Numbered from the stretch's first letter, positions 1 through 35,487 are shown. The stretch is 35,487 nt of DNA from Candidatus Bathyarchaeota archaeon (GCA_963777155.1 CAVZPM010000022.1:1-35487); one strand, 5' to 3'. Translations and numbers: made by a program. Notes: generated by a model not told the origin, from the letters alone.

Positions 1-1175
1 GGTTTTTTGGCTTTTTCCAACTCTTTTTTAAGCAGGTCAGCCTTGTCAGTCTTTTCCCAAGGGAACTCTACGTCTTCGCGGCCAAAGTGGCCAAAGACAG
101 CTGTTTTTTTGTAGATGGGCCTTAGCAGGTCTAGATGGTCAATTATTGCTTTAGGTCGCATATCAAAGTATTTCATGACCAAAGCTAAGATTTGTTCGTC
201 TGGGAGTTTGCCTGTCTCATTAGTGCTTACCAACACCGATATTGGTTGGGCAACGCCGATAGCGTAGGAAATCTGGACTTCACATTGTTCAGCTAATCCT
301 GAAGCAACGACGTTTTTGGCGATGTATCTTGCCATGTAACAGCCAGAACGATCGACTTTTGATGGGTCTTTGCCGCTGAAGCATCCGCCTCCGTGGCTTC
401 CAACTCCACCGTAAGTATCAACGATGATTTTTCTTCCTGTTAAACCTGAGTCGGCAAGGGTTCCACCAATGACGAATCTGCCAGTGCCGTTAATGACGTA
501 TTTTATGTCTTCAGCCAACATGTTTGGCGGGATTACATATTTAATGACCTTTTCGATTACATCTTTCTTTAGTGTCGCATCGTCGACTTTACCGTTATTC
601 TGTGCAGCAATGACTACGGTTTTTACGCATTTTGGTTTGCAGCAATCATATTCAACAGTAACCTGAGATTTGCAGTCAGGTCGAAGATAAGGCATGATTT
701 TTGTTTTTCTACATTCCGCTAGACGTTTAACAAGTTTATGCGCTAGTACAATGGGCAACGGCATGAGTTCTTTTGTCTCATTAGATGCATACCCAAAAAC
801 CATTCCTTGGTCTCCAGCACCTTGCTCGTGACCTTTAGACTCAGTTACTCCCATCGAAATGTCCGGAGACTGCTCAGTTAATGAAACTAAAACACCGCAT
901 GTTTCCCAATCCAAACCATCCTTTGCATTGTCAAACCCAATTTCCTGCAGAGTTTGGCGGACAATTTTTGGGATATTAACGTAGGAGCAAGTTGTTATTT
1001 GACCCGTAATCATTACTGTTCCCTGCATGACAAGGGTTTCACAGTCTACACGCGCTTTGGGGTCATGGGTGAATATTGCGTCTAAAACGCTGTCGGATAT
1101 TTGGTCTGCGACTTTATCAGGGTGACCTTCTCCAACTGATTCGGATGTGAACAAGTATCTTCCATTTTTTCTCAT
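1..1175 (-). CDS. metK: S-adenosylmethionine synthetase, bacterial/eukaryotic type; 3' end runs off the window
   Basis: Not in the ORF track. Manual minus-strand translation from ATG 1175 gives [28 protein letters not shown], then [36 protein letters not shown] and a C-terminal [12 protein letters not shown]...PWEK, all MetK signature motifs. Confidence 0.97.
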
Positions 1176-1336
1176 TGGATTCTCTCTTCCGTTCAATCGT
1201 ATGATAGGCATAGTAACTTGCCATTTTTCTTAAAAGGCTTTCGACAATGCAGACAACTATTCGACAAACAAATTTAAGGCAGATGCTTTACAAAAACCAT
1301 TTTTAGTCCTAAACTAACAAACACAAAGGGATACCG

Positions 1337-1729
1337 ATGAAAAGAACTGTGATTAACCAAAATGCACCAAAACCCCTTGGTCCTTACAGTCAAGCTGTGG
1401 AAGCTGGAAATTTCCTATTTGTTTCAGGACAACTGGCTATTGATCCAATGGATGACAAACTAATCATTGAAAGCATCAAGCTTCAAACACAACAAGTTAT
1501 GGAAAACATTAAATCCATTTTGGAAGCTGCTGGCTATAACTTAAAAGATGTGGTTCAATCCACAGTATACCTTTCCTCAATGTCGTTGTTTGAAGAGTTT
1601 AACCGTGAATATGCCAAATACTTTAAGACTAATTTTCCCGCCAGAGTAACGGTTGGAATAGAACTCAAGTCAGGTGCACTTGTTGAGGTTTCTGTTGTTG
1701 CCTTCAAAAACCGACCTCTTCAATTTTGA
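1337..1729 (+). CDS. ridA: RidA/YjgF/UK114 family enamine/imine deaminase
   Basis: APKPLGPYSQAV, FVSGQL, FNREYAKYF, PAR (catalytic Arg) and LVEV motifs; 130 aa. Confidence 0.93.
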   Translation: MKRTVINQNAPKPLGPYSQAVEAGNFLFVSGQLAIDPMDDKLIIESIKLQTQQVMENIKSILEAAGYNLKDVVQSTVYLSSMSLFEEFNREYAKYFKTNFPARVTVGIELKSGALVEVSVVAFKNRPLQF

Positions 1730-1775
1730 CAAGTTATAAAAACCCTGTCACCTCTTTACTATTAACGTGCATAAC

Positions 1776-2402
1776 ATGGCATCGTCCCTCAAGAAGTTCA
1801 TGCAGGAAATTGCAGGAAAAAAAGCCCCAGGGCCATCAACCACCTTCACAATATTCCATGTTTTCTATGCTTTGGAGCTACTGTCGGAGAAACCGTTGGG
1901 CAGAAACAAATTAGCTGAAAAACTCAACGTTGGGGATGGCGCGGTGCGGACCATAATAAGTAGATTAAGAGAAGCCGCTTTGATTGAAACCTCTAAAGAA
2001 GGTTGCAACTTAACCCAAAAAGGCTTGGATATTTGGCGGCAATTTCAAGAAATCTTCCCTAAACGAGTTGAAATTCCAAGATCTGAATTGGCTCAATCTG
2101 AGTTTAATTTCGCTTTTCTAGTTAAGAAAAGTGGGCAAAAGGTAGAATCTGGGATTGACCAGCGTGACGCAGCCATTATTGCGGGTGCACGGAAAGCCTT
2201 AGTCATCGTTTTTAAGAATGGTCATCTGTGCATCGAATCCGTGAGCAATTGTATAGAAAAGCAATATCCTAAGGCTGCAAACCTACTTCTCAAGGAGTTA
2301 ATGCCCCAAGATGACGATGTTATCATTATTTCTGGCGCCGATTCATACCTGAAGTCTAAGCGTGGCGCGTTTGCTGCAAGTTGGTCACTGATCAGCGTTT
2401 AA
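1776..2402 (+). CDS. Winged-helix protein, probably DUF4443 family putative regulator
   Basis: N-terminal HTH (GRNKLAEKLNVGDGAVRTIISRL) and GIDQRDAAIIAGA in the C-terminal domain. ATG 1776 is preferred over GTG 1767. Confidence 0.7.
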   Translation: MASSLKKFMQEIAGKKAPGPSTTFTIFHVFYALELLSEKPLGRNKLAEKLNVGDGAVRTIISRLREAALIETSKEGCNLTQKGLDIWRQFQEIFPKRVEIPRSELAQSEFNFAFLVKKSGQKVESGIDQRDAAIIAGARKALVIVFKNGHLCIESVSNCIEKQYPKAANLLLKELMPQDDDVIIISGADSYLKSKRGAFAASWSLISV

Positions 2403-3160
2403 GTTGTGTATTTTTCTCCTTCGTTCAAAATGCGTTCAAGCATCGTGTTAACGTTTACCATGCCTTCGTTCGATTTAGATGAAACAGGCATCAACAGGAA
2501 CTTCAAGCCAAGTTTGTTGATAGCTTGCATCATGTTACGACTGAACAAGCGTTTCGTACCCTCGAGTCTTTCTTCAATGGCATCTTCCAATGCATTGGTG
2601 TTTGCAGACCAACTTGCAATAGCCTGTACGTCTTTTTTAGGTATCAAGTCGCTTTTTGAGAGAATATGTATTTGTGGCTGGAAAAACCTATTGTAAACTG
2701 CTGCGGACAAGAACATGTTTGAAACATAGTTTAATGGATTAATTGAGAAAACAGCGTCGAAGAGATAGATTAATGCTTTAGGCTCTTTGGTTAATTCGTT
2801 AACGATGTATGGGCCGCTTGCGCGGAAAGCAAACAGCTCCATTTGACCGGGAGTGTCCACAAGTACGATGTCTGCATGGGCTTCTTCGATGTCGCGGGTT
2901 AAGTTTTCAATCTCATCCGCTATCAAATCAGCAGCCATAACTAAAGCGCCGTTTGGACCTAAACCATATTTTTCCATTATGTTGCCAACCTCCACGTAGT
3001 TTCGGACATCAACATCTGGTTGGTAAGGCAGTTTTAATGCTCCAGGATCCAAATTGACCACGGCAACGTCTTGTTTTGACATTTTAAGCCATTCTGCAAA
3101 AGCTGCCGTGAAGAGGGATTTACCCGAGCCAGCAGTTCCAATAATAAACGCTAAGGGCAC
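2399..3160 (-). CDS. Archaeal GPN-loop GTPase
   Basis: GTAGSGKS P-loop, NLDPG, YGLGPNGA (GPN loop), DTPGQMELF, SKSD. Confidence 0.95.
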   Translation of the reverse strand: MPLAFIIGTAGSGKSLFTAAFAEWLKMSKQDVAVVNLDPGALKLPYQPDVDVRNYVEVGNIMEKYGLGPNGALVMAADLIADEIENLTRDIEEAHADIVLVDTPGQMELFAFRASGPYIVNELTKEPKALIYLFDAVFSINPLNYVSNMFLSAAVYNRFFQPQIHILSKSDLIPKKDVQAIASWSANTNALEDAIEERLEGTKRLFSRNMMQAINKLGLKFLLMPVSSKSNEGMVNVNTMLERILNEGEKYTT

Positions 3161-3521: not shown

Positions 3522-4628
3522 TTATTGCTTTTTACCCATGGGGTTCTTGCGTAGTTCCGCAAGATACTTTGGGTCTTCCCGCAAGACTTTGGGTATATAA
3601 TTACATGCTGGGTCTGATTCGAAGAGGTCGCCAGTATAGTATTCTGCTCGTGTTCTGCATCCACCGCAGATTTCTCTGTATTCGCATACTCCACATCTGC
3701 CTTTAAGGTTACTTTTATCGCGAAGTTTGAGGTGGAAGTCGCTTTTTTGGAGTTGCTCCCATGCTGTACGTAGCTTTGTATCTTTGACGTTACCAATACG
3801 ATAGCCTTCATGGAAGCCGCAGCTTCGGTAGTCGCCGTTTTCTGTTATGCCGATGTAGTTACCGCCTATGGTGCATCTGCCCAAGTATCCTTCGTTAAAC
3901 CAATCCCAGAAGTCAACAGGGTTCTTCTGTTTGACTATACGTGCATAGAAGGGCGCATAAACATTGACTTTGACTTTACCATAGAGTTTACGTTGTATGT
4001 CATAGATTTCATTGAATGCTACCTCATACTGTTCGGAGGTAGGTGCGAGGTCTTCCATGTGTTCGCCTGCCCGTCCTACTGGCACGAGGTTGTGGTAGAC
4101 GACTGAGCGGGCTTTATATTCTTCTGCCAACGCCGCTGTATGTGCCATCTGGTGAATGTTATACTTAGTCATAGTGGTGACTAAGCAGTCAAGTAAGCCA
4201 ACGCTTGAGAGTTTCTTCATAGCGTGGAGGGCTTTATCGTAGCCGCCTTGGCGTCTTATTTTGTCGTTTGTATCTTTCATACCATCAATGCTGATGGCTG
4301 TTTTAACATTATATTTCCGTAGCTTATCAAAGCGTTCTTCATCCCATGCATAGCCGCTAGTGATCAAACTGACGTTGAGGTTATGTTTTTTCTCAGCATA
4401 CTCAATAATTTCCCAAATGTCTGGTCGAACCAGGGGCTCTCCGCCGCTGATTCCGAACCATTGCGAGCCGAATTCTGCCATTTCATCAACCATGTGTTTG
4501 GCTTGTTCGGTGCTTAGCTCTTGGTCTTTAGCGTAATCTTTAATGTAACTGCAATATGTGCAAGTACCAACACAGTTGCGGGTACATCGCCAAACAACCA
4601 TAAACAAGGGAGTTGTGGTTGGATTCAT
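3522..4628 (-). CDS. Radical SAM/SPASM protein (AhbC/AhbD/NirJ/PqqE-like)
   Basis: CVGTCTYC cluster motif, SGGEPL, SIDG, PVGRA, and SPASM cysteines (C..GG...C, CGVCEYREICGGCR, DPAC). Confidence 0.92.
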   Translation of the reverse strand: MNPTTTPLFMVVWRCTRNCVGTCTYCSYIKDYAKDQELSTEQAKHMVDEMAEFGSQWFGISGGEPLVRPDIWEIIEYAEKKHNLNVSLITSGYAWDEERFDKLRKYNVKTAISIDGMKDTNDKIRRQGGYDKALHAMKKLSSVGLLDCLVTTMTKYNIHQMAHTAALAEEYKARSVVYHNLVPVGRAGEHMEDLAPTSEQYEVAFNEIYDIQRKLYGKVKVNVYAPFYARIVKQKNPVDFWDWFNEGYLGRCTIGGNYIGITENGDYRSCGFHEGYRIGNVKDTKLRTAWEQLQKSDFHLKLRDKSNLKGRCGVCEYREICGGCRTRAEYYTGDLFESDPACNYIPKVLREDPKYLAELRKNPMGKKQ

Positions 4629-5005: not shown

Positions 5006-5479
5006 TTACTCAGTTAAAACATTGATTTTGCGCTTACTTTGTAACAGCCCTTCCACGGTGAAAACCGCCAAAGCAAACCCAGTGATGATTGTCAGAAGGA
5101 AGAAGAAAACTTTGAACTCGTTTGTCTCAACCGAATAATGAAGGATTAAAATTATGATTTCAACAATTAAGATTGCGAGGAACACCGAGGCGTAAAGCCA
5201 CATCTTCAACCATAGACGGTTGCCAATCCATATTTGTCCTCGGATATGCGCTTTGCGTTTAACTGTGTATTCGCCATACTCGTTTTTCTGCAAATCTCCA
5301 AGATCTTCGAGCTTCTGCAGGTGTCTGTAAGCGACGCTGGGACTGCTAAGTCCGATACCCTTCATGACGTCGCGGGGACCAACAGGTTTGCCTTTATTGA
5401 CAGCGTACATGTACACGGCTAAAGTTGTTCCTTCCAGCGAACTGTTTTCCGTATTAGTCAAAGTGTTCCCGCTCCGCAA
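5006..5479 (-). CDS. Membrane-tethered winged-helix protein (HTH plus 2 TM)
   Basis: PVGPRDVMKGIGLSSPSVAYRHLQKL HTH followed by two hydrophobic helices; paralog at 33586..34017. Start uncertain. Confidence 0.8.
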   Translation of the reverse strand: MRSGNTLTNTENSSLEGTTLAVYMYAVNKGKPVGPRDVMKGIGLSSPSVAYRHLQKLEDLGDLQKNEYGEYTVKRKAHIRGQIWIGNRLWLKMWLYASVFLAILIVEIIILILHYSVETNEFKVFFFLLTIITGFALAVFTVEGLLQSKRKINVLTE

Positions 5480-5621: not shown

Positions 5622-6737
5622 ATGAGTAATGAATCACCAAACGAACTAATTGTAAACCCAGCACCACACATAACAGGTCCAATGTCTAAAAATCGCATGA
5701 TGCAATACACTTTTTTCGCCATACTGGCAGTAACCATTGTTTCAATCGCGCTCTGGTCAGAAGTCACTACCCCCTCAGGATGGAATCTAGGCTTAACCGT
5801 TGCCATCGGCGCACTCATAGCAGTTGGCATAGCGGTCGCAGTCGACCTGCTTATCGGCAAAGTAACATCTGATAGCGAAGTAAACACTTGGTCCGCAGCA
5901 GTATTTGGTTTAATCGTCATTAACTGTTTTTCTCTCGGATTCCCAACAATGGCAGTCGGGTTAGAAACTGGGGTACCGGTTGAAGCACCCCTTGCGTTCT
6001 TCTATATCGCGTTAATCTCAGTCGTAGGCATCGTTGTCTTCAAGAAAGTCATGAGCCTCGCAGGCAAAAAACTGGTTAATCCTGCAGCAGCAGCCAAATT
6101 CCTCATCTTGCTCCCAACACTACCCGCAACACTCATCACAGCATTCCACCTAAAAACTGGACTTCTTCAAGTTCCAGCATTGGCAGGTGGAATCAGTGCA
6201 ACTTCCATCGTCAACGGAAACGGTGGCGCCACATTTGGCAGCTACTTACAAGCTTGCTATGGCTTGCCCACAGCTCAATCTCCGGCTAGTATCGAATCAG
6301 TTATGTTCTTAGCAAAATACCATGGATGGGTCGGTGGAGCATCCAGCATCGCAGTTATCATCGCAGGAATCGCGCTCTTTGTCTTAGCCCGCAAATACAT
6401 CAAATGGAAAATCACAGTCAGCTACCTTATCACCATCGCAGTTATGTCACTTGTATTCTCCTTCATCTATGTAGACGCAGATCTAACCACAAGATTATTC
6501 TTCGAGTTATTCATCGGCAGCTCAATATTCATGGCGTTCTTTATGGCAACCGATCCAGCGACAACACCATTTAGCGGAGTTGGACAAATCATCTTTGGTA
6601 TCGGTCTGGCAATTTTGACCATACTGATACAAACCTATATGAACTTCTTTGGCGGCTCACTGCTAGCGTTGCTCATCATGAACTTGACAGTTCCGCTTAT
6701 TGACCGTGTTCGCATAGGCAAACCCTTCGGGAGATGA
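5622..6737 (+). CDS. rnfD: RnfD/NqrB-family integral membrane subunit
   Basis: N-terminal PAPHI, SAAVFGL, VNPAAAA, AFFMATDPATTP, LLIMNLTVPLIDR and C-terminal FG. The stop overlaps the next start (ATGA). Confidence 0.85.
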   Translation: MSNESPNELIVNPAPHITGPMSKNRMMQYTFFAILAVTIVSIALWSEVTTPSGWNLGLTVAIGALIAVGIAVAVDLLIGKVTSDSEVNTWSAAVFGLIVINCFSLGFPTMAVGLETGVPVEAPLAFFYIALISVVGIVVFKKVMSLAGKKLVNPAAAAKFLILLPTLPATLITAFHLKTGLLQVPALAGGISATSIVNGNGGATFGSYLQACYGLPTAQSPASIESVMFLAKYHGWVGGASSIAVIIAGIALFVLARKYIKWKITVSYLITIAVMSLVFSFIYVDADLTTRLFFELFIGSSIFMAFFMATDPATTPFSGVGQIIFGIGLAILTILIQTYMNFFGGSLLALLIMNLTVPLIDRVRIGKPFGR

Positions 6738-8074
6738 ACAAAATGGCAAACTTAGTTGAAATAAAAGAACAGAAAGACCTTGCAAGAAAAACACCTATTG
6801 AAATCTTCCCTGACCCTAAAATCGCAGTCGTGTTAACCAACCAACAATCTGGGGCAACCAACACTCCCCTGGTTTCTGTTGGCGACAGCGTTGTCATCGG
6901 ACAAAAAATCGCAGACTCCAAAGAACGCATCAGCGCACCCGTCCACAGCCCAATCAGCGGAAAAGTCATAAAAATAGCGAACGTATACAATAGCTGCTTT
7001 GAAATGGCAACCGAAGCCGTTTACATTGAAGGCGACGGCAAGAAAACCAAAGATAAAACCTTAACTCCAATTTCTGAAGATGAACTCAAAGACACTTCAA
7101 ACGAAGTATTGCTGAAGCGTATCCGGGAAGCAGGTATCATCGGCATGGGAGGCGCAGGTTTCCCAACCAGCATCAAACTCTCCATCCCCGCTGATAAGAA
7201 AGTAACTACCATAATCGTAAACGGTGCAGAAGGCGAACCATATGACACTGCAGACGAACGCTTAATGATCGAGAAAACAGCAAACCTCGTGCGTGGAGTC
7301 CATGTTATACGCAAAATCCTTGGCAACCCAAAAGTTATAGTAGCAACTAAAGATAGCAAAGTTGAAGCTATACCTAAACTTCAGGAAGCCTTCGGTAAGG
7401 AGCCAGAAACCCAAGTTATCGCAAAGCACCTAACCTACCAACAGGGCGACGCAAGCGTCCTGCAAAAAGCAATCCTTGGCTACGAAACACCTCCCGACAA
7501 ACGCAGCTACGAAATGGGTACAATAGTGCAGAACGTCTCAACCTTAAACGCCATCGCAAATGCCGTTTTCGAAGGTGAACCACTAATATCCAGAGTCATC
7601 ACACTAAACGGTGACGTCGCAAAACCCAAAAACCTACTGGTGAAAATTGGCACTCCGATATCTGACATACTTATCCAAAACAACATTAATACAAAGGACA
7701 TCGGAAACATAGTTGTCGGCGGAGTAATGATGGGAACCGCTCTCCAAACAATCGACGCACCAGTAACCAAACGAACCTCAAGCATAATCTACTTCACAAA
7801 AAGCACCGTTAAGAAAATTAAAAAATCTACAGCGTGTATTCACTGCGGAAGATGCCTCAATGCTTGTCCAGTACGTCTACAACCCATAGCAATCTACAAT
7901 GCCGTAATAAAAGGCGACTTCGCAAAAGCTGAAAAACTCTGGGCCAAAGACTGTCTAGTATGCGGAACATGCTCGTTTGTCTGTCCATCACGACTACCCC
8001 TAGCTAGCGACCATCAAGATGGCGCGTCAATAAAAAACTCCCCCTTTATCTTTTCTTTTATTTTTCTATTCTAA
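6734..8074 (+). CDS. rnfC: RnfC-like flavin/2x[4Fe-4S] oxidoreductase; probable true stop at 8033 after a +1 frameshift
   Basis: PLVSVGDSV, SAPVHSPISGKV, AGIIGMGGAGFPT, NGAEGEPY.TAD.RLM, GGVMMG, CIHCGRCLNACP and CLVCGTCSFVCP. Confidence 0.9.
   Translation: MNKMANLVEIKEQKDLARKTPIEIFPDPKIAVVLTNQQSGATNTPLVSVGDSVVIGQKIADSKERISAPVHSPISGKVIKIANVYNSCFEMATEAVYIEGDGKKTKDKTLTPISEDELKDTSNEVLLKRIREAGIIGMGGAGFPTSIKLSIPADKKVTTIIVNGAEGEPYDTADERLMIEKTANLVRGVHVIRKILGNPKVIVATKDSKVEAIPKLQEAFGKEPETQVIAKHLTYQQGDASVLQKAILGYETPPDKRSYEMGTIVQNVSTLNAIANAVFEGEPLISRVITLNGDVAKPKNLLVKIGTPISDILIQNNINTKDIGNIVVGGVMMGTALQTIDAPVTKRTSSIIYFTKSTVKKIKKSTACIHCGRCLNACPVRLQPIAIYNAVIKGDFAKAEKLWAKDCLVCGTCSFVCPSRLPLASDHQDGASIKNSPFIFSFIFLF
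8034..8072 (+). terminator. C-rich then T-rich archaeal terminator-like tract
   Basis: aaaaactcccctttatcttttcttttatttttct follows TAA 8031-8033. Similar tracts follow the stops at 8869 and 9849. Confidence 0.5.
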
Positions 8075-8156
8075 TTGCGGACTTCAATTGATTGTGTTAT
8101 TCGTACAGTTACTTGTGTGAAGTTATAGCAGGTCGCCGTTGGGTGTAAAAACAAGC

Positions 8157-8209: not shown

Positions 8210-8869
8210 TTGGAAGAAAACAAATTCAAGTTATCGGACATCTTCGGCGGCATTATCATTCCAATGATTCTAGTAATTCTCATTTATGTTCTCGCGGTTT
8301 ACGTCAACGTCGGCGGACAGCACCACGTTCTCGGCGCAACAAACACGATCGCGGTCATTCTTGTTAATGGCTTTGCAGAAATGATTATTCTCGGTATCCC
8401 ATTGGTTTTAGGCTTGCTATGGAATAAGTGGGCAGGTGGAGCTGCAGGCTTCGTCATGGGCGGCCTTTATTACGTAGCGCAAGCAGGTCAATATAACGGA
8501 ATTTATGCAAGTGCGGGTGTAACTACTTACAACTTCTTTGGCGACGTCAGCATGCTTTACTGGATTGTCTACGGTGTTATCATCGGTTACATGGCTGGCG
8601 CACTCAACAATGGATCTACAAACTTCAAACGAATGCTCCTCTCAGGTTTGACTGCTTCGGTGATAGTCTCAGTACTCAAAGCTTACTTGAATTACACTAT
8701 CTCACTTGACCCCGCAAGACAGATGGCTCAAGATTCTTGGAAAGTAGACCCGGTATTGGCTGTTGTAACTAATTTCGTGCCACTAATTGCATTAGGCGTA
8801 ATCGTACCGATACTCGGCAAAGTAATGACCTGGTATGGCATTCAGCCTCAAAAGCATTCAGCCTATTAA
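8210..8869 (+). CDS. Multi-pass membrane protein, possibly ECF transporter S-component-like (copy 1)
   Basis: 219 aa, about 6 hydrophobic segments, small-residue helix LGLLWNKWAGGAAGFVMGGL. The family call is an inference. Confidence 0.75.
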   Translation: MEENKFKLSDIFGGIIIPMILVILIYVLAVYVNVGGQHHVLGATNTIAVILVNGFAEMIILGIPLVLGLLWNKWAGGAAGFVMGGLYYVAQAGQYNGIYASAGVTTYNFFGDVSMLYWIVYGVIIGYMAGALNNGSTNFKRMLLSGLTASVIVSVLKAYLNYTISLDPARQMAQDSWKVDPVLAVVTNFVPLIALGVIVPILGKVMTWYGIQPQKHSAY

Positions 8870-9833: not shown

Positions 9834-9849
9834 ACCACAGAGGCACTAA
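9199..9849 (+). CDS. Multi-pass membrane protein, possibly ECF transporter S-component-like (copy 2)
   Basis: Near-identical paralog of 8210..8869, differing at the N-terminus, at MLLS/LLGA and in the C-terminal tail. Confidence 0.75.
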   Translation: MAENKLNLSIIFGGIIIPLILALLIYVLAVYVNVGGQHHVLGATNTIAVILVNGFAEMIILGIPLVLGLLWNKWAGGAAGFVMGGLYYVAQAGQYNGIYASAGVTTYNFFGDVSMLYWIVYGVIIGYMAGALNNGSTNFKRLLGAGLTASVIVSVLKAYLNYTISLDPARQMAQDSWKVDPVLAVVTNFVPLIALGVIVPILGKVMTWYGIQPQRH

Positions 9850-11233: not shown

Positions 11234-11336
11234 CTAAATTCCCCAATGGGTGTTTTAAAACCGCTCGAATATGTAATAAAGTTTCCGTAGAAAAGCCTCA
11301 GTCCAGAAAAAACGAGGAGGGCGGCTGCTTTGCAAT

Positions 11337-12737: not shown

Positions 12738-12758
12738 CGCTATACCTGTTAACTAAAG

Positions 12759-28406: not shown

Positions 28407-28460
28407 TAAAGAGGCACTTCTGAAAAACAAATACCTATACGCTTCGATTAAAACTTTCCA

Positions 28461-29498
28461 TTAAATCGGCATAAACCAGAACAACCGCACAAGCACGATG
28501 ACTGCTACACAGAGTATTCCCCACAATACAATCGTAACATCCCGAATTCGCAAAGCACCCAGGATTTTGTCTCCCGTCAAAGGTTCTTGAGCATCGCCTA
28601 GGATGTACTGTCCTGGTTTTTCAAGCTGTATGCGAAGTGCACCTGCTACTGCCGCCATCGGCCAACCATGGTTCCGGCTTGGAGTTTTTTTGTGGTCTCG
28701 ACGTGCGATTCTCCATGCGTTTCTCGCGTCCATGCGTAAAAATGCGGCGGCCACAATCATCAGCAAAGTTGTTAACCTTGTGGGAATGTAGTTTACGATG
28801 TTGTCGAGGTTTGCACTAAACCAGCCCGTGTTGATGTGTTCTTTAGTCTTGAAGCCCACCATGCCGTCTAACGTGTTTATTGCCCTAAACGCAAATGCGC
28901 CAGTTACCCCGAACAGGGCAAATGACATCATGGGTGAGAGTTTGAAGTCGATTAGGTTTTCTGACATGGATTCGATGACTGCACTACCCATCTGAGCGCC
29001 ATTCAGGTCTTTGGATTCCCGGCGTGAGAAGTGGCTGTATTTTTTTGCTTCAGGAAGGTTGCTTTCATCGATGGCTTTGGCAGCGGCTTTTGCCCAGTTG
29101 GTCTCAAGTTTGATACATATTGTCATTTTTAATAGGATTACGGCGATGAAACCGTATACGATTATGTTGATGTAGAATGGTACGTATTTGTATATTGCCC
29201 ATAGCCCGAAGAAAATTGGAAGCGCAAAAGCGGCAATCACTGTTAAACCAAGCAGAACACCGAGGGCTTTTTCTGTTCTAGAGTTGGAATTTTTGAAGGC
29301 GGGCTCTATTTTCTTGGTGAATTTACCCATTAAAACAGTTGGGTGTAGTTTGAAGACCCATCTGTCGGGGTTGTTTGGTGAGGGGTCCCCAAGAACCAAA
29401 TCTAGCAAAATGGCTAAAACTAGAATTACGATGGAAACCAACGTGTTTATGAGGCTTAGTTCCAAGATGACCCAAACTTGCTTTTTGAGATACTTCAA
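28461..29498 (-). CDS. cbiB: Adenosylcobinamide-phosphate synthase CbiB/CobD
   Basis: LDLVLGDP, HP, IESMSEN, RAINTLDGMVG, A.LD..VNYIPTRL, S.N.GWPMAA.AGAL..QL. Confidence 0.93.
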   Translation of the reverse strand: MKYLKKQVWVILELSLINTLVSIVILVLAILLDLVLGDPSPNNPDRWVFKLHPTVLMGKFTKKIEPAFKNSNSRTEKALGVLLGLTVIAAFALPIFFGLWAIYKYVPFYINIIVYGFIAVILLKMTICIKLETNWAKAAAKAIDESNLPEAKKYSHFSRRESKDLNGAQMGSAVIESMSENLIDFKLSPMMSFALFGVTGAFAFRAINTLDGMVGFKTKEHINTGWFSANLDNIVNYIPTRLTTLLMIVAAAFLRMDARNAWRIARRDHKKTPSRNHGWPMAAVAGALRIQLEKPGQYILGDAQEPLTGDKILGALRIRDVTIVLWGILCVAVIVLVRLFWFMPI

Positions 29499-29675: not shown

Positions 29676-30653
29676 TTAAAATGTGGATATGTGTTGCTGT
29701 GGTGTTGGCCAGCTGTCGGGGATTTTTCTGGCGCTGGCTTCAATTTTTGTCATGCCGCAAACCTTGGCAATTTGATCCTGCATATCAAACGAGTGTGCCA
29801 TATCTCTTATCATCGCGGCTACATGGAGATCGAAGTCGCCACTAGTTTTTGTTATAATGACAACATCTGGTATTTTTGCTAACAAATCAACAACGGGTCC
29901 TGTTACGCAAGAAGCCGTAAAGGCTATGTTGAAATCCAGTATCGAACTGTATCCAATTATGTTTGGATTTATCTGCGTTGAAATTTTTATGGCGCCATAA
30001 TCTCGAAGTTTATTGTACCTTTTAACTACAGTATCTGTTGACAAGCCTATTTCTTTGGCAATAGTTGAAAATGATACGCGCCCATTTAGAGTTAATTTCT
30101 GAACTATTTGTCTATCTATCTCGTCAATTTTTATTGAATCGTTTATTTTAGTTGTAGTTTGACTTGTTTTTTCTGGGACCTCTTGGCTATTTTTGGTTTC
30201 GTTTGTTAAGTTCATGTTTTCAGGTATGTTCTTTACTCCAGCCCAAATGTAAGTTTTTATCCCTAGAGTTGGCAAATTTCGTTTAATTAGGTGCTTTACA
30301 TGGTCTAACTCTTTTAGATCCCATAGAGTCGCCACTGCCCTAACATTATAAACGCTATTATATTGCCTATATGCACGCACCTCAGTTATTTTCTTGGTAA
30401 CTTCCATAACCTGGTCCATTTGCTGTGCTTCTGCGCTTATGAGCATAGTTGCAAGTGCTGCGTACCCAAAATATCCAAAGTTCATCTGTACGGTGGCACC
30501 TTTAATGATGCCTTTCTTCTCCATGGATTTGCAGCGTTTCCAGATTTTATTTTCTGGTTCCCCGCATTCTCTTGCTATCGAATCGTAACCTATCCGCCCA
30601 TTCTTTAATAATATTTTCAGGATTCTTGAATCAAGTTCGCTTATTTTGGGCAA
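29676..30653 (-). CDS. Tandem (double) Lrp/AsnC family regulator
   Basis: Two HTH plus ligand-binding units (LDSRILKIL..NGR; IDEIDRQIV..L..NGRVSF..IAKEIGLS), TSGDFDL. Confidence 0.9.
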   Translation of the reverse strand: MPKISELDSRILKILLKNGRIGYDSIARECGEPENKIWKRCKSMEKKGIIKGATVQMNFGYFGYAALATMLISAEAQQMDQVMEVTKKITEVRAYRQYNSVYNVRAVATLWDLKELDHVKHLIKRNLPTLGIKTYIWAGVKNIPENMNLTNETKNSQEVPEKTSQTTTKINDSIKIDEIDRQIVQKLTLNGRVSFSTIAKEIGLSTDTVVKRYNKLRDYGAIKISTQINPNIIGYSSILDFNIAFTASCVTGPVVDLLAKIPDVVIITKTSGDFDLHVAAMIRDMAHSFDMQDQIAKVCGMTKIEASARKIPDSWPTPQQHISTF

Positions 30654-30791
30654 CTTTTTTCCCTTTATTCCTACTTTTTGTTATGTATTCAAATTTAAGA
30701 TTTCTCTTCTTTCTCTTAACTATTTCAGTCAAAATATCTAACATTTATTATATTATGGCGAAATTGAATGAATTGCCTTTTAACAAACTCG

Positions 30792-31805
30792 TCAAAAAGT
30801 TGAAATATATTGGCGGGGGCTGGGCCATTTCTTCCACTCTTCGTTTATTCTTGAAATTTCCTGTTCAATTTTTCTTATTCCTGAAATCTTTCCAATCTGC
30901 TCTTGAATGTAAAGCAATTGACCTATGTCCTGAACCATTGCATATATTTGTAGGTCACAGTCTCCAGATGTCTTCATAATGCTTATGATGTTTGGTATTC
31001 TGCTGACTTTTTCAACAATCAAATTTGGCTTTTCATTGGAAGTAGTAGCAAAAAAAATACACATCGCTTGGTATCCGATTCTACTAAGATTAATTTGAAT
31101 TGTTACTTTTAGTGCGCCTTTTTTCTTCAGCTTTTCATATCTTCTTTTTGCTGTGTCAGGCGAGATTCCTATTTCCTTAGCCAGAACATCCATTTGAATT
31201 CGACCGTTCTCAGCCAATTTATCTGCTATTTTTTGATCGATTTCATCGATAATTGCAGTTTGAGTGTCTTTTTCATTTCTCTTAATTTCATGATTCTCTG
31301 TTATTGTGTCTTTCAGATCTCGCTTGACTAATGCCAGATTCTGGTTCATTTCTTTTACATCTGTCCAGATTGCTGTTTTCATTTCCAAAACTGGAAAATT
31401 ATTTTTTATTGAATCCTTAACCACGTTCAGCTGTTCAAGCGTTTTAAGGATCACTACTACGTCCACAGTTCCTTTTACTTCCTTATTGAAGGCAGAATAT
31501 ACCTCTGGCTTTTTTTGTAGGTATTCGACAAGTTTGTCTGCTTGCTGGGCGTCCAAGTAGATTAACATGTGTGCAACTGCTTTGTAACCAAAACTTTTGT
31601 AGTTAATGTGAATTGTAGCACCAGTAATAACTCCAATTGCTTCCAATTGTTGATAATTTTTCTTAACGACTTCTTTAGTTAGACCTAGTTTTTTCGCAAT
31701 TTCTGTGTCAGTTTTGCGTCCATCCGCTATTAATTCTTTAAGAATTTTTGCTTGAACTTCTGTAACTTGCCCAGTTAAGATTGATACCCCTTGTTGAGCA
31801 TTCAT
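30792..31805 (-). CDS. Tandem (double) Lrp/AsnC family regulator
   Basis: KILKELIADGRKT.TEIAKKLG; IDEIDQKIA..L..NGR; TSGDCDL; the tail WPSPRQYISTF is shared with the neighbour. Confidence 0.9.
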   Translation of the reverse strand: MNAQQGVSILTGQVTEVQAKILKELIADGRKTDTEIAKKLGLTKEVVKKNYQQLEAIGVITGATIHINYKSFGYKAVAHMLIYLDAQQADKLVEYLQKKPEVYSAFNKEVKGTVDVVVILKTLEQLNVVKDSIKNNFPVLEMKTAIWTDVKEMNQNLALVKRDLKDTITENHEIKRNEKDTQTAIIDEIDQKIADKLAENGRIQMDVLAKEIGISPDTAKRRYEKLKKKGALKVTIQINLSRIGYQAMCIFFATTSNEKPNLIVEKVSRIPNIISIMKTSGDCDLQIYAMVQDIGQLLYIQEQIGKISGIRKIEQEISRINEEWKKWPSPRQYISTF

Positions 31806-32012
31806 GGTTTTTTGCTATAATTAATATTGTGGTGTATTTAGTCTTTTACATGGACTGTTTCATATCAGGAATCTTGAAGTAACAAGATAATATTGCCATT
31901 TGTCAAATAAAAAAGCAATATTATCGATTAAATCCAAGTTTTTTATAAAGTTTTATATACGAAGGAAGCCCGATTCTTTTCATTAGAAAGAGAAAGAAAA
32001 GTCTGCGATAGA

Positions 32013-32135
32013 TGGAGATGTGGGGCTGAGTAGGCTTTGGTAACTATTAACGAAATAGCCAATAGTTAAAAGAAGAGCTTTGCATTTGCTCTTTTTCTCC
32101 TTAAACCAGAGCCTCAGCAAACCCTAACATTTCTA
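32013..32135 (+). ncRNA. Candidate structured RNA (multi-stem junction), family unassigned
   Basis: Nested complementary segments with G-U pairs enclose two internal hairpins; see findings. Confidence 0.4.
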
Positions 32136-32271
32136 ACCGTTGCCGGGAGTCTTATTTGCCAAAAAGGTAATGCTTCGATGTAAACCCAAATCTATGAGAT
32201 TCGCTCGTTTCGTTCGACTATGTTGGTGCTACAAAAATGATATATGCATCTGAGGGAACTACAAGGAATTC

Positions 32272-33504
32272 ATGAGCAGGCAACCTAACGGGGTTAATGA
32301 GCGTCTAAGGACCTTGTTGTTGCCTACTTTAGTTTTATGCACTTTTGTTGGATTTACGATAACCGCTTTTCTTAGCACGCTCCTTGTGGATCTTGCAGAA
32401 TCTTTTAACGTTTCAATCGGAACAGCGAGTGAACTTGTACTGATCAGTAGCCTAACAGGCCTAATCGTTGGAGTGGTTATGAGTGCAATTTCCATTAAAT
32501 TCAAACATAGGTCTCTATTTCTCATCGGAATATCAGTTTTTGCGATTGGGACATTTGGTTTCTTCTTGGCACAGACCTTTGTCATACTTGTTTTTAGCCA
32601 ATTTCTGGTTGCAGCAGGCTCTACAATTATCTCAATCATGACTTATGCCTTGATTGGGGATCAGTTTCCATTGGAGAAAAGAGGCTGGGCTATCGGTCTG
32701 CTCGTTTCAGGCGGAATGGCTGCGTTCATTATTGTTGCGCCCTTGTCCGGGCTAATTGCAGGCTTAGCAGGATGGCGGTCAGTGCTCTCCTGGTTCATAA
32801 TACCCCTTTCAATAGTCTGCGTGGCTCTGAGTTTAATTTGTATTCCTTCGAATCAGCCCAAATTAGACCCTTCAAGCCAATCTCTCTATGTGCAAGCATA
32901 CAAACGCATTTTTCTTTGCAAATCAACAGTTGCTTGTCTCATGGGTACAACGCTTGTTTCGTTCATAAGTGTCGTTCCTATGTACGCTGTATCCTTTTAC
33001 AGAACTGCTGATTCTGTTTCCCCGATTGTAGGCGGTGTTTTTTCCTCAATCGCTGGTGCAGGAGCGTTTGTCGGGGGGATAGTTGGAGGGAGATTAGTTA
33101 ATAGGTTTGGCAGAAAGTCACTAGCTGTTACATTTTACTTCGTTTCAGGCGTTACGTGTATTCTTTTCACTTTCATTCCAATAATTGGTGTTTCGGTGGC
33201 TATATGGGCTCTGGCAGCTGCCACGGGAACCTTGGGAATGGCTGGTCTAACCAGCTTAACACTGGAACAGGTTCCAACATTTAGGGCATCGATGATGTCG
33301 ATTAGCGGATCCTTCCAAAATGTAGGAATGGCTTTAGGGGCAATTATTGGCGGATTAGTGCTAAATTACTTTCATAACAACTTTCAACTTCTAATGACTG
33401 TTCTCGGGTCGCTTGGAGCTTCCGCCGCCATAGTGCTCTTTCTTTTCACAAATGACCCATACAAAGCGGGTCTCCGAGCAAAAAACCCAAAGCCTGATTC
33501 ATAA
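32272..33504 (+). CDS. MFS transporter (DHA1/AraJ-like)
   Basis: 410 aa, about 12 TM segments, P.EKRG.A.G, GWR, GRL.NRFGRK. Confidence 0.92.
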   Translation: MSRQPNGVNERLRTLLLPTLVLCTFVGFTITAFLSTLLVDLAESFNVSIGTASELVLISSLTGLIVGVVMSAISIKFKHRSLFLIGISVFAIGTFGFFLAQTFVILVFSQFLVAAGSTIISIMTYALIGDQFPLEKRGWAIGLLVSGGMAAFIIVAPLSGLIAGLAGWRSVLSWFIIPLSIVCVALSLICIPSNQPKLDPSSQSLYVQAYKRIFLCKSTVACLMGTTLVSFISVVPMYAVSFYRTADSVSPIVGGVFSSIAGAGAFVGGIVGGRLVNRFGRKSLAVTFYFVSGVTCILFTFIPIIGVSVAIWALAAATGTLGMAGLTSLTLEQVPTFRASMMSISGSFQNVGMALGAIIGGLVLNYFHNNFQLLMTVLGSLGASAAIVLFLFTNDPYKAGLRAKNPKPDS

Positions 33505-33585
33505 TAATTTGTTGAAATTACCCTATGGATTTGGGCTCGGATTTTTATTTATGTACTCGCTATTTAGTGAAGGACTGATGCCTGC

Positions 33586-34017
33586 TTGGCTGAACAAGAA
33601 CTGAATTCAACGTTGTTTCAAACTTATGTGTTTCTTGTAAAGACTGGGAAACCTGTTGGTCCCAGGGATTTGATGCGTGGAGCCAACCTGAGCAGTCCAA
33701 GCGTTGCCTACCGTAACCTGCAGAGACTAATGGATTTGGGTTTAGTTGCCAAAGACGAGTACGGCAACTACATTGTTAAGAAAAAGGTCGCTATGAGTGG
33801 ATATGTTTGGGTTGGAAAAACCCTCATCCCAAGCTTCGCCGTTTACGGCTTTATTTTTCTAGGCGTTTTAATAGCAGAAATTCTCGTATTGATCCCTCAT
33901 ATGCTAAAAGGTTCTGCCATAGAGGAGTCATTCTGGCTTTTAACGGTAGTTACTGTTGTTTCTGCAGCAGTTTTTCTGATTGAAGCATGGCGGTTTAGGA
34001 AAAAGTCAAAACATTAA
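33586..34017 (+). CDS. Membrane-tethered winged-helix protein (HTH plus 2 TM)
   Basis: GKPVGPRDLMRGANLSSPSVAYRNLQRL; clear paralog of 5006..5479. Confidence 0.82.
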   Translation: MAEQELNSTLFQTYVFLVKTGKPVGPRDLMRGANLSSPSVAYRNLQRLMDLGLVAKDEYGNYIVKKKVAMSGYVWVGKTLIPSFAVYGFIFLGVLIAEILVLIPHMLKGSAIEESFWLLTVVTVVSAAVFLIEAWRFRKKSKH

Positions 34018-34047
34018 CTTACTCGCTTTTTTGTGGTTCAAAGCTAT

Positions 34048-35106
34048 TTATGGCCAATATTTGGGCGCGATAGCCTCGCTGTCGATTAGTGAAGGAAACA
34101 GGTTAAGGGGCCAAGCTGGTGGCAGCATAGTCAAATGGACCGTTATCGACTCTACTCCGGCTATTTTTCTGATTTTTATATTGGCATCAAACATCTGTTC
34201 AAAATCCTCAAGGACAAGTCCACAATACAAATCATAGCTGCCGATTAGCCTAATGATAACTATTAGGTTTGGGATTTCAAGTATTTGAGTGTAAATTTCA
34301 TTCATTTTGCTACGGTTGGAGATTTTTAAGTACAGGTTTGCAAAAGCTTTGTATCCCAATTTGGAGAGGTCAACAGTTATGCTGGAAGAAGTGAACAAGT
34401 TATTTCTTAGTTTTTTGTACCTTTGAATTATAGTCTTACTTGAAACATTCAGTTCTGTGGCAATTTTATTGAAGGGTGTGCGTGCATTTATGGAAAGAAT
34501 TTTTGCAATCTTTTTATCAATTTCGTCTAGCGCAATAACTGGTCGTTCTTGATGATTGTTTATCAAGACTTTTCTGTCTTGTCGGTTATTTTCCTTTAAC
34601 GGTTTGATGATTAAGTTTTCTGGGTATTCTATGTTTGCTGCCTTCGCCCAGATTAATGCATCTACATGTTTAATGCAACTGTTAGCTTCCATCTCCTCGA
34701 TAATATCGTGCAACTTTTTGAGGTTTCGTATAGCTACTTTGCCAAGGAAGTTGTAATTGCCACATGGACCGACTAATCCAGCAATGTAAGGTTTGGTTTC
34801 GAGGAATTTTGTTACTTCTTTGTCATCTTCAATCGCGTTCGTTATGCATAGATCAACAATGTGTTGGTATCCCAAGCAGTGAGGGTTAATGAGCATTACT
34901 TCGCCGTTTATTACGCCTTCTTTCCATAGCCGTTTGTAACGTATTCTAACGGCTGTGACGGTAATTTTGCAGGCGGCAGCGATATCGGTGAAACTGGTGC
35001 GGGATTCCAATAAGAGTATCTTTAGTATTTTTGCATCAATTTCATCGATTTTCACTTTAGTTGCCAAAGTTACCTTGACCTCTACAAAACTTGGAATCTT
35101 AACCAT
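34048..35106 (-). CDS. Tandem (double) Lrp/AsnC family regulator
   Basis: IDEIDAKIL..L..ESRTSFTDIA and LDEIDKKIA..L..NARTPF..IA; G.YDL; late WP motif. Confidence 0.9.
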   Translation of the reverse strand: MVKIPSFVEVKVTLATKVKIDEIDAKILKILLLESRTSFTDIAAACKITVTAVRIRYKRLWKEGVINGEVMLINPHCLGYQHIVDLCITNAIEDDKEVTKFLETKPYIAGLVGPCGNYNFLGKVAIRNLKKLHDIIEEMEANSCIKHVDALIWAKAANIEYPENLIIKPLKENNRQDRKVLINNHQERPVIALDEIDKKIAKILSINARTPFNKIATELNVSSKTIIQRYKKLRNNLFTSSSITVDLSKLGYKAFANLYLKISNRSKMNEIYTQILEIPNLIVIIRLIGSYDLYCGLVLEDFEQMFDANIKIRKIAGVESITVHLTMLPPAWPLNLFPSLIDSEAIAPKYWP

Positions 35107-35312
35107 GCAAAACGTGATGCTTTATTTAAGATTTTTCAAATCTATTGAGAAAAATTATGTTTAGTGTATCTCTGTATTTGCCTGTTTAAGGTCTATTATC
35201 TGAATAATAAATAAAATAGTTTGTCCAATCTTCGTTCATTTTACAAATTCTGGCAACGGACTTTCCCTACGATGTTTTTTCTCGCAAATTCGATATGTGA
35301 GCAGTTGTTTTT

Positions 35313-35486
35313 CTATTTTCTCCTAAGTTTTAATTTTACATCTGAAATTAGGTTGGCAGCGAAAATCAACGCTGTAGATAACTTGAACCTTCTTTTCTTC
35401 TCAAAGAGAAATGCAGCGCGCAGGTAGTAATGGTGGAACGCACCTTCTCTTAGTTTACCCAGGTCTTTCATACTTAGCCACGGTGT
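35313..35486 (-). CDS. 3' end of a gene entering from the right edge, probably another cobalamin-binding radical SAM protein
   Basis: Not in the ORF track. Translation TPWLSMKDLGKLREGAFHHYYLRAAFL...KLKLRRK* resembles IPNMTMQELTQIREQAFQSFYLSPRYF of 19183..20595. Confidence 0.7.
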   Translation of the reverse strand, partial: TPWLSMKDLGKLREGAFHHYYLRAAFLFEKKRRFKLSTALIFAANLISDVKLKLRRK

Positions 35487-35487
35487 C

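Follow-up and report, generated by a model that had tools for sequence, protein, structure and literature searches.

A radical SAM-rich accessory island conserved in one order of Bathyarchaeia and its possible role in ether lipid tailoring

The contig CAVZPM010000022.1:1-35487, from the Candidatus Bathyarchaeota archaeon assembly GCA_963777155.1, carries nine genes for radical S-adenosylmethionine (SAM) enzymes and the end of a tenth. We find that this contig (35,487 nucleotides, analysed at full length and hereafter called the window) is the central 35 kb of an accessory island of 60-80 kb in one Bathy-6-type order, and that this one order of the Bathyarchaeia conserves the island as a genuine accessory locus. 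The reading that we prefer, and hold tentatively, is that the island serves the stepwise tailoring of isoprenoid ether lipids and encodes the cofactor supply for this work alongside. Among the features that are new here are a paralogous set of cobamide genes, an orphan RnfD-RnfC pair, the co-distribution of a second tetraether-synthase-like (Tes-like) gene with a UbiA prenyltransferase gene, and the retention of the island in genomes without HemB.

A pangenome study of Bathy-6 reported 7-20 B12-type radical SAM genes per metagenome-assembled genome (MAG), many secreted proteins with pyrroloquinoline quinone (PQQ) domains and a PqqE-like gene, and proposed a role in lignin modification (PMC11697101, 2024). 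Its observation of abundant B12-type radical SAM genes resembles ours, and the related loci described below include one from its MAGs; the portions of its main text available to us are, however, silent on the island, its synteny, the paralogous cobamide set, the orphan RnfD module and the second Tes-like/UbiA pair. We found no paper describing the island, although the supplements of that study (Fig. S7, Table S4) may show gene positions.

The window holds a dense cluster of radical SAM genes

The source assembly, G000 (2.29 Mb in 39 contigs; 90.6% complete, 3.8% contamination), is a Bathyarchaeia (Bathy-6-type) MAG, and the window is the whole of its contig C22. Using an open reading frame (ORF) listing combined with Pfam and NCBIfam scans of the encoded proteins, we counted 29 genes. 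The initial annotation had counted nine radical SAM genes (six B12-binding, two SPASM and one HemN-like), and this count stands, as each of the nine proteins scores above the Pfam Radical_SAM cut-off and has one CxxxCxxC motif. Given 32 radical SAM matches in the 2.17 Mb of G000 that lie outside the locus and its duplicate contigs, 0.52 such genes would be expected per 35.5 kb, and radical SAM genes are clustered in the window above chance (Poisson 5e-9, although tandem paralogs are not independent).

Three of these genes, for the HemN-like protein (9950-11233; radical SAM and HemN_C domains), the class B enzyme B12_1 (11337-12737; B12-binding and radical SAM domains) and the SPASM enzyme SPASM2 (12759-13838; Pfam domains and CxxxCxxC motif), form a core run at 9950-13838 on the minus strand, with gaps of 103 and 21 bases. 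A second SPASM gene, SPASM1 (3522-4628, minus strand), encodes PF04055 and PF13186 domains with the motif CVGTCTYC at residue 19 and is AhbD/NirJ-like, though under all cut-offs. The other class B genes are B12_2 (16728-18071, minus; PF02310 and PF04055, with the motif at residue 220), B12_3 (19174-20595, plus), B12_4 (20624-21988, plus), B12_5 (23596-25077, minus) and B12_6 (26958-28430, minus; 62% identical in the more distant relative G040). All six class B proteins have the expected architecture, with PF02310 scores of 52.8-88.1 bits (cut-off 32.1), PF04055 scores of 81.5-107.7 bits (cut-off 29.5) and a single CxxxCxxC at residues 199-233, an architecture in which no sequence signature tells methylases from cyclases, desaturases or dehydratases. 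In a tree, the island class B paralogs form three clades separate from the remaining class B genes of the genome: B12_3 and B12_5 fall in clade I, B12_2 and B12_4 in clade II and B12_6 in clade III. The tail of a tenth gene suspected at the right end (35313-35487, minus strand; class B, clade I) proved real. Its 52-residue frame at 35313-35471(-) is kept in six of six relatives and continues on contig C16, where the complete gene (C16:4705-6090) encodes a B12-radical SAM protein of 461 aa.

The window is collinear from end to end with other contigs of the same bin, namely C17 (window positions 1-25151, 70-94% nucleotide identity), C28 (19516-31928, 85-91%), C16 (30618-35487, 96%) and the end of C27 (1-1452, 99.7%), and the duplicate contigs overlap one another at 98.6% (C17/C28) and 87.7% (C28/C16) identity. 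The G000 bin thus contains the locus in two to three diverged versions, up to three in places, and the stretch from B12_1 through SPASM2 to a neighbouring propeller gene (11364-16477) is 70-78% identical between versions, compared with 84-96% for its flanks. Because the closed genomes of relatives hold one B12_5 ortholog each, the extra versions probably represent co-binned related populations rather than true duplication. It follows that the 24 B12-domain and 56 radical SAM matches of the assembly are inflated, and gene counts taken from this MAG should be read with that in mind. Contigs C27 and C16 reveal the sequence beyond the left and right ends of the window, respectively. Scans of the window for Rfam families (at gathering thresholds) and for tRNA genes returned no matches.

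The island enzymes fall outside the named families

With every NCBIfam model, all nine radical SAM proteins stay below cut-off; the most favourable ratio is that to BchE (251.2 against 481.35 bits). The two SPASM proteins score 203.1 and 220.3 bits with the AhbD model TIGR04545, whose cut-off is 500 (AhbD is the best NCBIfam match of SPASM1, at 203 bits), 149-176 bits with the NirJ models (cut-offs 500-650), and 120 and 110.4 bits with the PqqE model TIGR02109 (cut-off 381). The HemN-like protein scores 183.4 bits against a cut-off of 400 for ChuW, 156.3 against 205.4 for HemW and 135.1 against 325 for HemN, and the six class B proteins score 102-143 bits with BzaD (cut-off 450) and 113-146 bits with TIGR04014, the model for QCMT (cut-off 360). 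Thus the enzymes do not each belong to a separate known housekeeping family, a possibility raised at the outset that would have undercut the idea of an island: zero of nine fall in a named one.

Comparison with solved structures gave only distant relatives, these being AprD4, QCMT, TokK, PqqE and HemN. The class B enzymes are closest to AprD4 (6fd2; E values of 1e-19 to 1e-27) and next to 9CCB, which is QCMT, described in the part of the literature available to us as a protein glutamine C-methyltransferase (PMC12931638); SPASM2 is closest to PqqE (E 3.8e-16). When the HemN-like protein was compared with 1.84 billion representative sequences, a single full-length cluster was found at or above 50% identity, whereas the full-length relatives that follow are 37-38% identical, and the ESM Atlas returned only generic radical SAM and HemW-family clusters for it. 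As judged from their sequences, then, the island enzymes appear to belong to no named family.

The gene set co-occurs and stays linked in related genomes

An alignment search of species-representative genomes with the HemN-like protein identified 194 relatives, the best 80 of which were used to assess taxa and habitats. Nearly all of these 80 come from Bathyarchaeia/Bathyarchaeota MAGs from soil, peat, pulp-mill and termite gut samples, and among them are three Candidatus Bathycorpusculum species. At the 56 loci with a full 10 kb on both sides of the HemN-like gene, we found genes for RnfD in 51, SPASM1 in 50, SPASM2 in 46, B12_1 in 44, a secreted beta-propeller protein in 43 and RnfC in 23. 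Across 301 Bathyarchaeia genomes an ortholog of the HemN-like protein (E<=1e-90) is present in 38, including 30 of 48 genomes in the family of the source organism (f1) and 7 of 12 in a second family (f7), and is found in no other sampled family. Six genera hold the island, five in one family and one in the other. Class B expansion is likewise limited to the island-bearing lineages: class B matches number 1-10 in 24 same-genus genomes, 17 in the composite G000 and 6 in G040, versus 0-3 in other families.

Five genomes of the same genus show synteny for nearly every window gene. In one closed genome, G003, the island is ~63 kb long. It has three SPASM genes and nine to ten class B genes, among which five to seven propeller genes are interspersed in alternation (HemN-like, propeller, B12_1, propeller, SPASM2, propeller, B12_5), and its modules stand in an order unlike that of the window. 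The closed genome G040, from the other family of the same order, has a block of ~30 kb with a propeller, three SPASM, one HemN-like and six class B genes, cbiB, an amidohydrolase gene, an RnfD-ferredoxin fusion and a small membrane protein gene, to which are added three class I methyltransferases, a fusion of aldo-keto reductase and ferredoxin, and a CobQ/CobB-like amidotransferase. The last of these (CbiA and GATase_3 domains; L008:11708-13180) adjoins the HemN-like gene and has no counterpart in the window. A PIN-domain gene lies within the G003 island (L004:4558-4938), between a DUF71 ligase gene (DUF71b) and a gene for a CobD-like aminotransferase. The set therefore is not scattered, as it might have been had the apparent cluster been accidental, but co-occurs and stays linked in related genomes.

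Contigs from RNA libraries of three wetland studies match pieces of window genes with 0-4 differences, covering those for a membrane-tethered regulator, rnfD, rnfC, the small membrane proteins, the HemN-like protein, the propeller, B12_3, DUF71b and B12_5. These contigs fit transcription in nature, short of proof; the lack of cover at 11670-12336 and 21675-22341 is uninformative on expression.

Island-bearing genera carry a second, linked pair of tetraether-type genes

The right flank of the G003 island continues with glycosyltransferase genes, a third SPASM gene, and CobY-like and CobS genes, followed by a UbiA prenyltransferase gene beside a radical SAM gene of family PF23545. The end of contig C38 in G000 holds the same pair. 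The PF23545 gene there (C38:150827-152317) encodes a zinc-ribbon and a radical SAM domain (PF23545 at 66 bits, with PF04055), and its product aligns with the solved tetraether synthase GDGT-MAS (7tol), GDGT standing for glycerol dialkyl glycerol tetraether, with an E value of 1.7e-111 over residues 6-485. By sequence it thus belongs to the tetraether synthase (Tes/GDGT-MAS) family. A further, universal Tes-like copy on contig C1 is nearer to 7tol (E 1.4e-161; 541.6 bits versus 376.6 for the island-linked copy), making the island-linked gene the more divergent of two paralogs. Among 14 control genomes, PF23545 matches were found only in Methanocaldococcus jannaschii, Sulfolobus acidocaldarius and Methanosarcina acetivorans.

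We surveyed 121 genomes of the order for these genes. A Tes-like gene is present in 105 of the 121, but genomes with a second copy, 46-90% identical to the one linked to the island, all belong to the six island-bearing genera. The island-linked prenyltransferase, UbiA2, is present in 34 of the 121 with the same distribution as the second Tes-like gene, always adjacent to it, and in none of the other ten families. The second Tes-like gene and the island-type cbiB gene occur together in 32 genomes, and in 18 of these they share a contig; the distance between them, compared by hand, is 15-41 kb in 17 cases and 90 kb in the remaining one. Three classes of product had been put forward initially for the radical SAM genes, a remodelled corrinoid or tetrapyrrole, modified tetraether lipids, and modified proteins or peptides; the lipids gain most, from this co-distributed and linked pair, albeit one that lies outside the window.

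What has been published on archaeal lipid tailoring points in the same direction. In the parts available to us, one study describes Grs, Gmm, two GDGT methylases and Ted as B12-radical SAM enzymes, Ted being a tetraether desaturase from a Bathyarchaeota MAG (10.1101/2025.10.20.683597), and Li et al. 2024 place Gms, the glycerol monoalkyl glycerol tetraether (GMGT) synthase, in a SPASM-group subfamily that they liken to AhbC/AhbD (PMC11186832). Given the latter, AhbD-like best matches do not imply tetrapyrroles. The island shares with the known tetraether-tailoring enzymes (Tes/GDGT-MAS, Grs, Gms, Gmm, the GDGT methylases, and Ted with Hgs) its B12-binding, SPASM-group and Tes-family classes, and with archaeal lipid-tailoring clusters (gms-gmm-grs, ted-hgs) the grouping of several such genes and, in the case of Ted, a Bathyarchaeota origin. 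In contrast to those clusters it is far larger, with seven to ten class B genes, a HemN-like gene, two to three SPASM genes, cobamide genes and an RnfD module; we saw no AttH-like hydratase gene in it, and its Tes-like member is a divergent second paralog.

On this basis we propose the following scheme. The island-linked UbiA prenyltransferase and the divergent tetraether-synthase paralog would provide an isoprenoid ether lipid scaffold, on whose unactivated carbons the class B enzymes of the three clades, the two to three SPASM enzymes and the HemN-like enzyme would act in succession, by methylation, ring formation, cross-linking or desaturation. A second CbiZ/CbiB/CobD-like set, together with CobY-like and CobS proteins, would assemble the required cobamide from salvaged corrinoid, and a compact membrane module (RnfD plus RnfC, or RnfD fused to a ferredoxin domain), situated beside a vitamin-transporter-like protein, would feed in electrons. 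We infer the substrate, the reactions, the reduction of radical SAM clusters by the RnfD module and the sharing of a single pathway from the genes' content, families, conservation, linkage and co-distribution and from the CbiB and Tes-like paralogy. The multi-step tailoring pathway originally suggested for the window gains ground, in that its genes co-occur, stay linked and lie outside named families, while its unity as one pathway remains the conjectural part.

Several points weigh against lipid tailoring. The amidohydrolase, the DUF71 ligases, the aldo-keto-reductase-ferredoxin fusion and the interleaved propellers find no role in it, and the best database matches of the SPASM, HemN-like and class B proteins, all far under cut-off, are tetrapyrrole enzymes. 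The Tes-like/UbiA pair lies outside the window and is parted from the nearest class B gene by glycosyltransferase and cobamide genes, and its co-distribution with the island rests on about two independent clades, so that shared ancestry alone could explain it. The likeness to Grs, Gmm, Gms and Ted is one of enzyme class, drawn from published descriptions rather than from sequence comparison. Mixed gene orientation and the shuffled order of genes among genomes fit several independent units, and the RNA-library contigs may be carried-over DNA, from which co-expression is not readable. In G000 itself, stop codons interrupt the UbiA2 gene and the CobS gene falls into two frames (C38:152305-155024, L103), which could be assembly errors or decay.

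We also considered methylation of the backbone of butanetriol dialkyl glycerol tetraether (BDGT) as the specific reaction. According to the parts available to us of a recent account, Bathyarchaeia lipids have been characterised in one marine genus only, BDGT marks another genus, and work on lipid modification is called for (PMC12694404, 2025). We rejected this candidate on the grounds that BDGT points to that other genus and that most of the class lacks the island.

The genes may instead share no pathway at all, the locus being a duplication hot spot of class B, propeller and regulator genes, each unit with its own substrate and all held together by a shared need for B12 and common ancestry. 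The mixed orientation, with an upstream region of its own for almost every window gene, accords with this account, as do the gene order shuffled between genomes, the coming and going of propeller genes, the paralogs that arose by local duplication, and the presence of six regulator genes of three kinds (counting a DUF4443 regulator). So do the two to three diverged versions of the locus in this one bin, between which B12_1, SPASM2 and the propeller are only 70-78% identical. Against it, at least twelve gene families stay together across two families of the order despite rearrangement, and four unrelated markers (the HemN-like gene, the island-type cbiB, the second Tes-like gene and UbiA2) have one narrow distribution. 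We regard a pathway-free hot spot as unlikely.

A second cobamide gene set accompanies the radical SAM genes

Each radical SAM turnover consumes at least one SAM. The gene at the left end of the window, which runs off the contig (3-1211, minus strand), encodes a bacterial-type SAM synthetase, MetK (TIGR01034 at 552.6 bits, cut-off 309), and its complete form on C27 specifies 404 aa. Initially seen as a dedicated SAM supply, metK does not bear out that role: a search of the 90.6% complete G000 for the archaeal MAT (PF01941) found none, leaving the bacterial-type enzyme as the sole SAM synthetase found, and in the second family (G040) the gene lies outside the island. It is therefore a housekeeping neighbour.

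Cobamide genes, on the other hand, are truly co-located with the radical SAM genes. The cbiB gene of the window (28461-29498, minus strand) encodes an adenosylcobinamide-phosphate synthase paralog that exceeds the cut-offs of TIGR00380 (242.6 against 165.9 bits) and NF002281 (274.9 against 273), which upholds its first identification, as NCBIfam scores also do for metK and RnfC. It is not, however, the only copy in the genome. A canonical salvage locus on contig C34 has BtuF/C/D-like, DUF2284 and CbiZ genes, with a CobD-like aminotransferase gene and a CbiB gene 24 kb further on, and the island type is a second paralog, 41% identical to that canonical copy. Second copies of the partner genes exist as well. 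Another CbiZ, with 34% identity to the canonical protein, is encoded to the left of metK on C27 and is syntenic in G003, G014, G012 and G022, and a second CobD-like aminotransferase (33% identical) is encoded in the right flank on C16 and inside the G003 island. In our survey of the order (121 genomes), only island-bearing genera have the island-type CbiB (54-100% identical), nearly always together with a canonical copy (40-47%), and those f1 genera without a HemN-like gene that we searched had no CbiB at all. The CobY-like and CobS genes stand at the flank of the island (the right flank in G003). Taken with archaeal corrinoid salvage as usually organised (BtuFCD, CbiZ, CobD, CbiB, CobY and CobS), the island resembles it in a CbiB above equivalog cut-offs and in its CbiZ, CobD-like, CobY-like and CobS flank, and differs in that the set is a second, diverged one (33-41% identical), is confined to island-bearing genera and sits beside B12-dependent enzymes, not a transporter.

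These genes raise a second alternative, that the island turns salvaged corrinoids into a special, remodelled cobamide. The second CbiZ would cut the linker and the CobD-like protein and island CbiB would add a new one; the amidohydrolase, the DUF71 ligases and the CobQ-like amidotransferase of G040 would reshape side-chain amides; and the radical SAM enzymes would alter the periphery of the ring or the lower ligand. The extra set beyond the canonical C34 locus of BtuFCD-CbiZ and CobD-CbiB, the restriction of its CbiB, the CobQ/CobB-like gene within the G040 island, the CobY-like and CobS genes at the flank, and top NCBIfam matches to AhbD, NirJ, HemN/ChuW and BchE all speak for it. Cofactor supply for seven to ten B12-dependent enzymes is, however, a simpler account of the extra cobamide genes, the scores to tetrapyrrole families are well under cut-off (BzaD at 102-143 versus 450 bits), and we know of no class B enzyme that acts on the corrin ring.

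The distribution of HemB (PF00490) is telling in this regard. Among six island-bearing genomes, it was not found in G000 (90.6% complete), the closed G003, G012 or G001, and is present in G014 and G040. The island is kept with or without HemB and is therefore independent of tetrapyrrole synthesis, which counts against a heme-type pathway and also weighs on the corrinoid alternative just described. Thus the island resembles the tetrapyrrole enzymes (AhbC/AhbD, NirJ, HemN/HemW/ChuW and BchE) and BzaD/BzaE in its best-scoring NCBIfam models and in the cobamide genes alongside, and departs from them in scores under cut-off and in the four island-bearing genomes where HemB was not found. A heme or siroheme pathway formed by the AhbD-like genes and the tandem-Lrp genes of the right end of the window was rejected for the same two reasons; moreover, Lrp/AsnC regulators are better-scoring matches to the tandem-Lrp proteins than AhbA/AhbB are. 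The original suggestion of a tetrapyrrole-type product is accordingly weakened by four genomes (one of them closed) in which HemB was not found, and what survives of it is the remodelling of salvaged corrinoid, which we consider improbable.

RnfD and RnfC form an orphan module

In the window, rnfD (5622-6737, plus strand) and rnfC (6734-8074, plus strand) overlap by four bases. The RnfC protein, with its FMN/NADH domain and two 4Fe-4S motifs, exceeds its NCBIfam cut-off (TIGR01945, 403 against 246 bits), whereas the RnfD-like membrane protein passes only the Pfam cut-off (PF03116, 139 bits) and falls below that of TIGR01946 (108.6 against 207 bits), so that the pair as first named holds firmly for one member and in part for the other. 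Its assignment to an Rnf complex fails: RnfA/E (PF02508) was found in none of six genomes (G000 and five relatives), the search having left aside RnfB and RnfG. No flavin-attachment motif of the form [ST]GA[TS] is conserved in RnfD, the nearest, GGAT, not being conserved either. RnfD-RnfC is thus an orphan module, like the Rnf complex (RnfABCDGE) in an RnfC above model cut-off and an RnfD within PF03116, and unlike it in the features just listed. It differs further in that RnfD of G003 and G040 carries a C-terminal 2x[4Fe-4S] domain in the place of RnfC.

The module is always followed by a small membrane protein, which in the window is encoded by two tandem genes (8210-8869 and 9199-9849, plus strand) whose products have six to seven helices and no Pfam or NCBIfam family. 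The two are 95% identical, and in relatives they are more diverged or single, which suggests a recent duplication or gene conversion. The ESM Atlas clusters of this protein are Bathyarchaeota-only, with a lead to the S components of energy-coupling factor (ECF) transporters at 0.88. S components also came top in a Foldseek search of the PDB, in which no match reached E<=0.001, and the AlphaFold2 model used was poor (pLDDT, the predicted local distance difference test score, of 61.5); a resemblance to ECF S components may be taken as a weak lead. Complex prediction for RnfD with the small membrane protein was uninformative (score 0.00 in two runs made without controls).

Secreted propellers and the case for protein or peptide modification

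The gene at 14090-16636 (plus strand) encodes a secreted, C-terminally anchored beta-propeller of 848 aa with PQQ-like repeats (PF13360, 293.9 bits) and hydrophobic segments at its N- and C-terminus; with the PQQ-dehydrogenase model TIGR03075 it scores 116 bits, the cut-off being 480. If such propellers were the targets of the radical SAM enzymes, or the users of a peptide-derived cofactor made by them, the island would modify proteins or peptides, the third of the product classes first put forward. The alternation of propeller and radical SAM genes in G003, the additional class B gene that two propellers flank in the C17 copy of the locus, PqqE as the nearest solved relative of SPASM2 (E 3.8e-16) and QCMT (9CCB) as the second closest of the class B enzymes would all make sense on that account, and a PqqE-like PQQ synthase has been proposed in Bathy-6 in what is available to us of the pangenome study (PMC11697101). 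Yet PqqD (PF05402) was not found in G000 and, of the 44 small intergenic ORFs of the window compared with six relatives as possible peptide precursors, only one, the tenth gene's tail, is conserved, so a peptide or PQQ product is less likely. In addition, PqqE scores reach only 110-120 versus 381 bits, the SPASM enzymes have no N-terminal recognition domain (motif at residue 19), the propeller is under the cut-off of the quinoprotein model, and a closed Bathy-6 genome has, in the same partly available source, 46 PQQ-domain versus 11 class B genes (PMC11697101), numbers that allow no one-to-one pairing. PQQ synthase as an identity for these enzymes was rejected on the PqqE scores and the failure to find PqqD in G000, and for protein or peptide modification as a whole we see a small chance.

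Transformation of imported lignin-derived or humic compounds, as proposed for radical SAM and PQQ-domain proteins by the Bathy-6 pangenome authors in what is available of their text (PMC11697101), would suit related genomes from soil, peat, termite gut and pulp-mill digesters and the MtrH-like and corrinoid proteins at the left side of the island, but it is very improbable, the SAM consumed being more than an energy-limited anaerobe could afford in bulk catabolism and no aromatic-ring or substrate-specific uptake genes having been seen in the island.

Other genes of the window and its flanks

The remaining genes include the two DUF71 genes, the Amidohydro_3 gene and the major facilitator superfamily (MFS) transporter gene, all of which Pfam confirms as first described. 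The DUF71 ATP-pyrophosphatase-type ligases are encoded at 18241-18948 (plus strand; PF01902, 104.7 bits) and, for DUF71b, at 22766-23512 (minus strand; 126.6 bits). Dph6 was rejected as an identity for them, because their TIGR03679 scores (98.9 and 111.9 bits) are under the cut-off of 197.3, although that for Pfam DUF71 is exceeded. The Amidohydro_3 metallohydrolase gene (25201-26784, plus strand; PF07969, 325.7 bits) adjoins the island cbiB in both families, including G040. A conserved ORF of 104 aa (21985-22299, minus strand) is 74-75% identical in G003 and G012 and has a weak match to the ThiF C-terminal domain (E 1.7e-4).

Five regulators had been taken as paralogs of one family. They are in fact members of two: three tandem-Lrp/AsnC fusions (29676-30653, 30792-31805 and 34048-35106, all on the minus strand; 25-38% identical) and two winged-helix proteins, each with a C-terminal pair of membrane helices (5006-5479, minus strand, and 33586-34017, plus strand; 46% identical). 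The first of the latter, recognised from sequence and hydropathy, has no Pfam family and is present at 35 of the 56 loci. A sixth regulator, the winged-helix/DUF4443 protein (1767-2402, plus strand), belongs with RidA (1337-1729, plus) and a GPN-loop GTPase (2399-3160, minus) to a group of genus-level neighbours rather than the core: the genes at 1337-3160 are syntenic in five of five same-genus genomes (RidA in four of five) and absent from the G040 island. The right end of the window (29676-35106) is variable, with close orthologs in relatives only for the genes at 33586-34017 and 34048-35106. It includes a stretch of low GC content (29676-33504; 0.345 at 30-32 kb), in which two tandem-Lrp genes and the MFS transporter gene (32272-33504, plus strand) have no close orthologs in the relatives checked; the C16 version of the MFS gene is broken into three frames.

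On the left flank, the MtrH-like, corrinoid-protein and class B genes at C27:7180-10330 (L098, G000) appear truncated or split, and are intact in G003, G012 and G014. At the start of C27, a 486-aa ORF (1-1461, L098) matches the N-terminal domain of a phage terminase large subunit (PF03237, E 1.1e-10) and may mark a provirus beside the left flank of the island.

Significance

Bathyarchaeia are among the most abundant archaea of anoxic soils, peat and sediments. If the island does tailor lipids, its genes would be the named genes behind possible Bathy-6-specific biomarkers in soil and peat, and several new radical SAM chemistries on inert carbons would be at work. In its fullest form, about which we are doubtful, the proposal would have Bathy-6 archaea in soil and peat making lineage-specific, heavily modified membrane-spanning lipids, on a scaffold from the second UbiA/Tes-like pair that up to ten B12-radical SAM enzymes and the SPASM and HemN-like enzymes would modify, with cobamide supplied by the island and with the first dedicated membrane electron input for radical SAM enzymes, in which RnfD-RnfC or the RnfD-ferredoxin fusion would act together with the vitamin-transporter-like protein. 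Whatever the substrate, the second cobamide-assembly set, the orphan RnfD module, whose cytosolic parts are interchangeable, and the tight shared distribution of the four unrelated markers provide testable ideas on how anaerobes supply large sets of B12-radical SAM enzymes.

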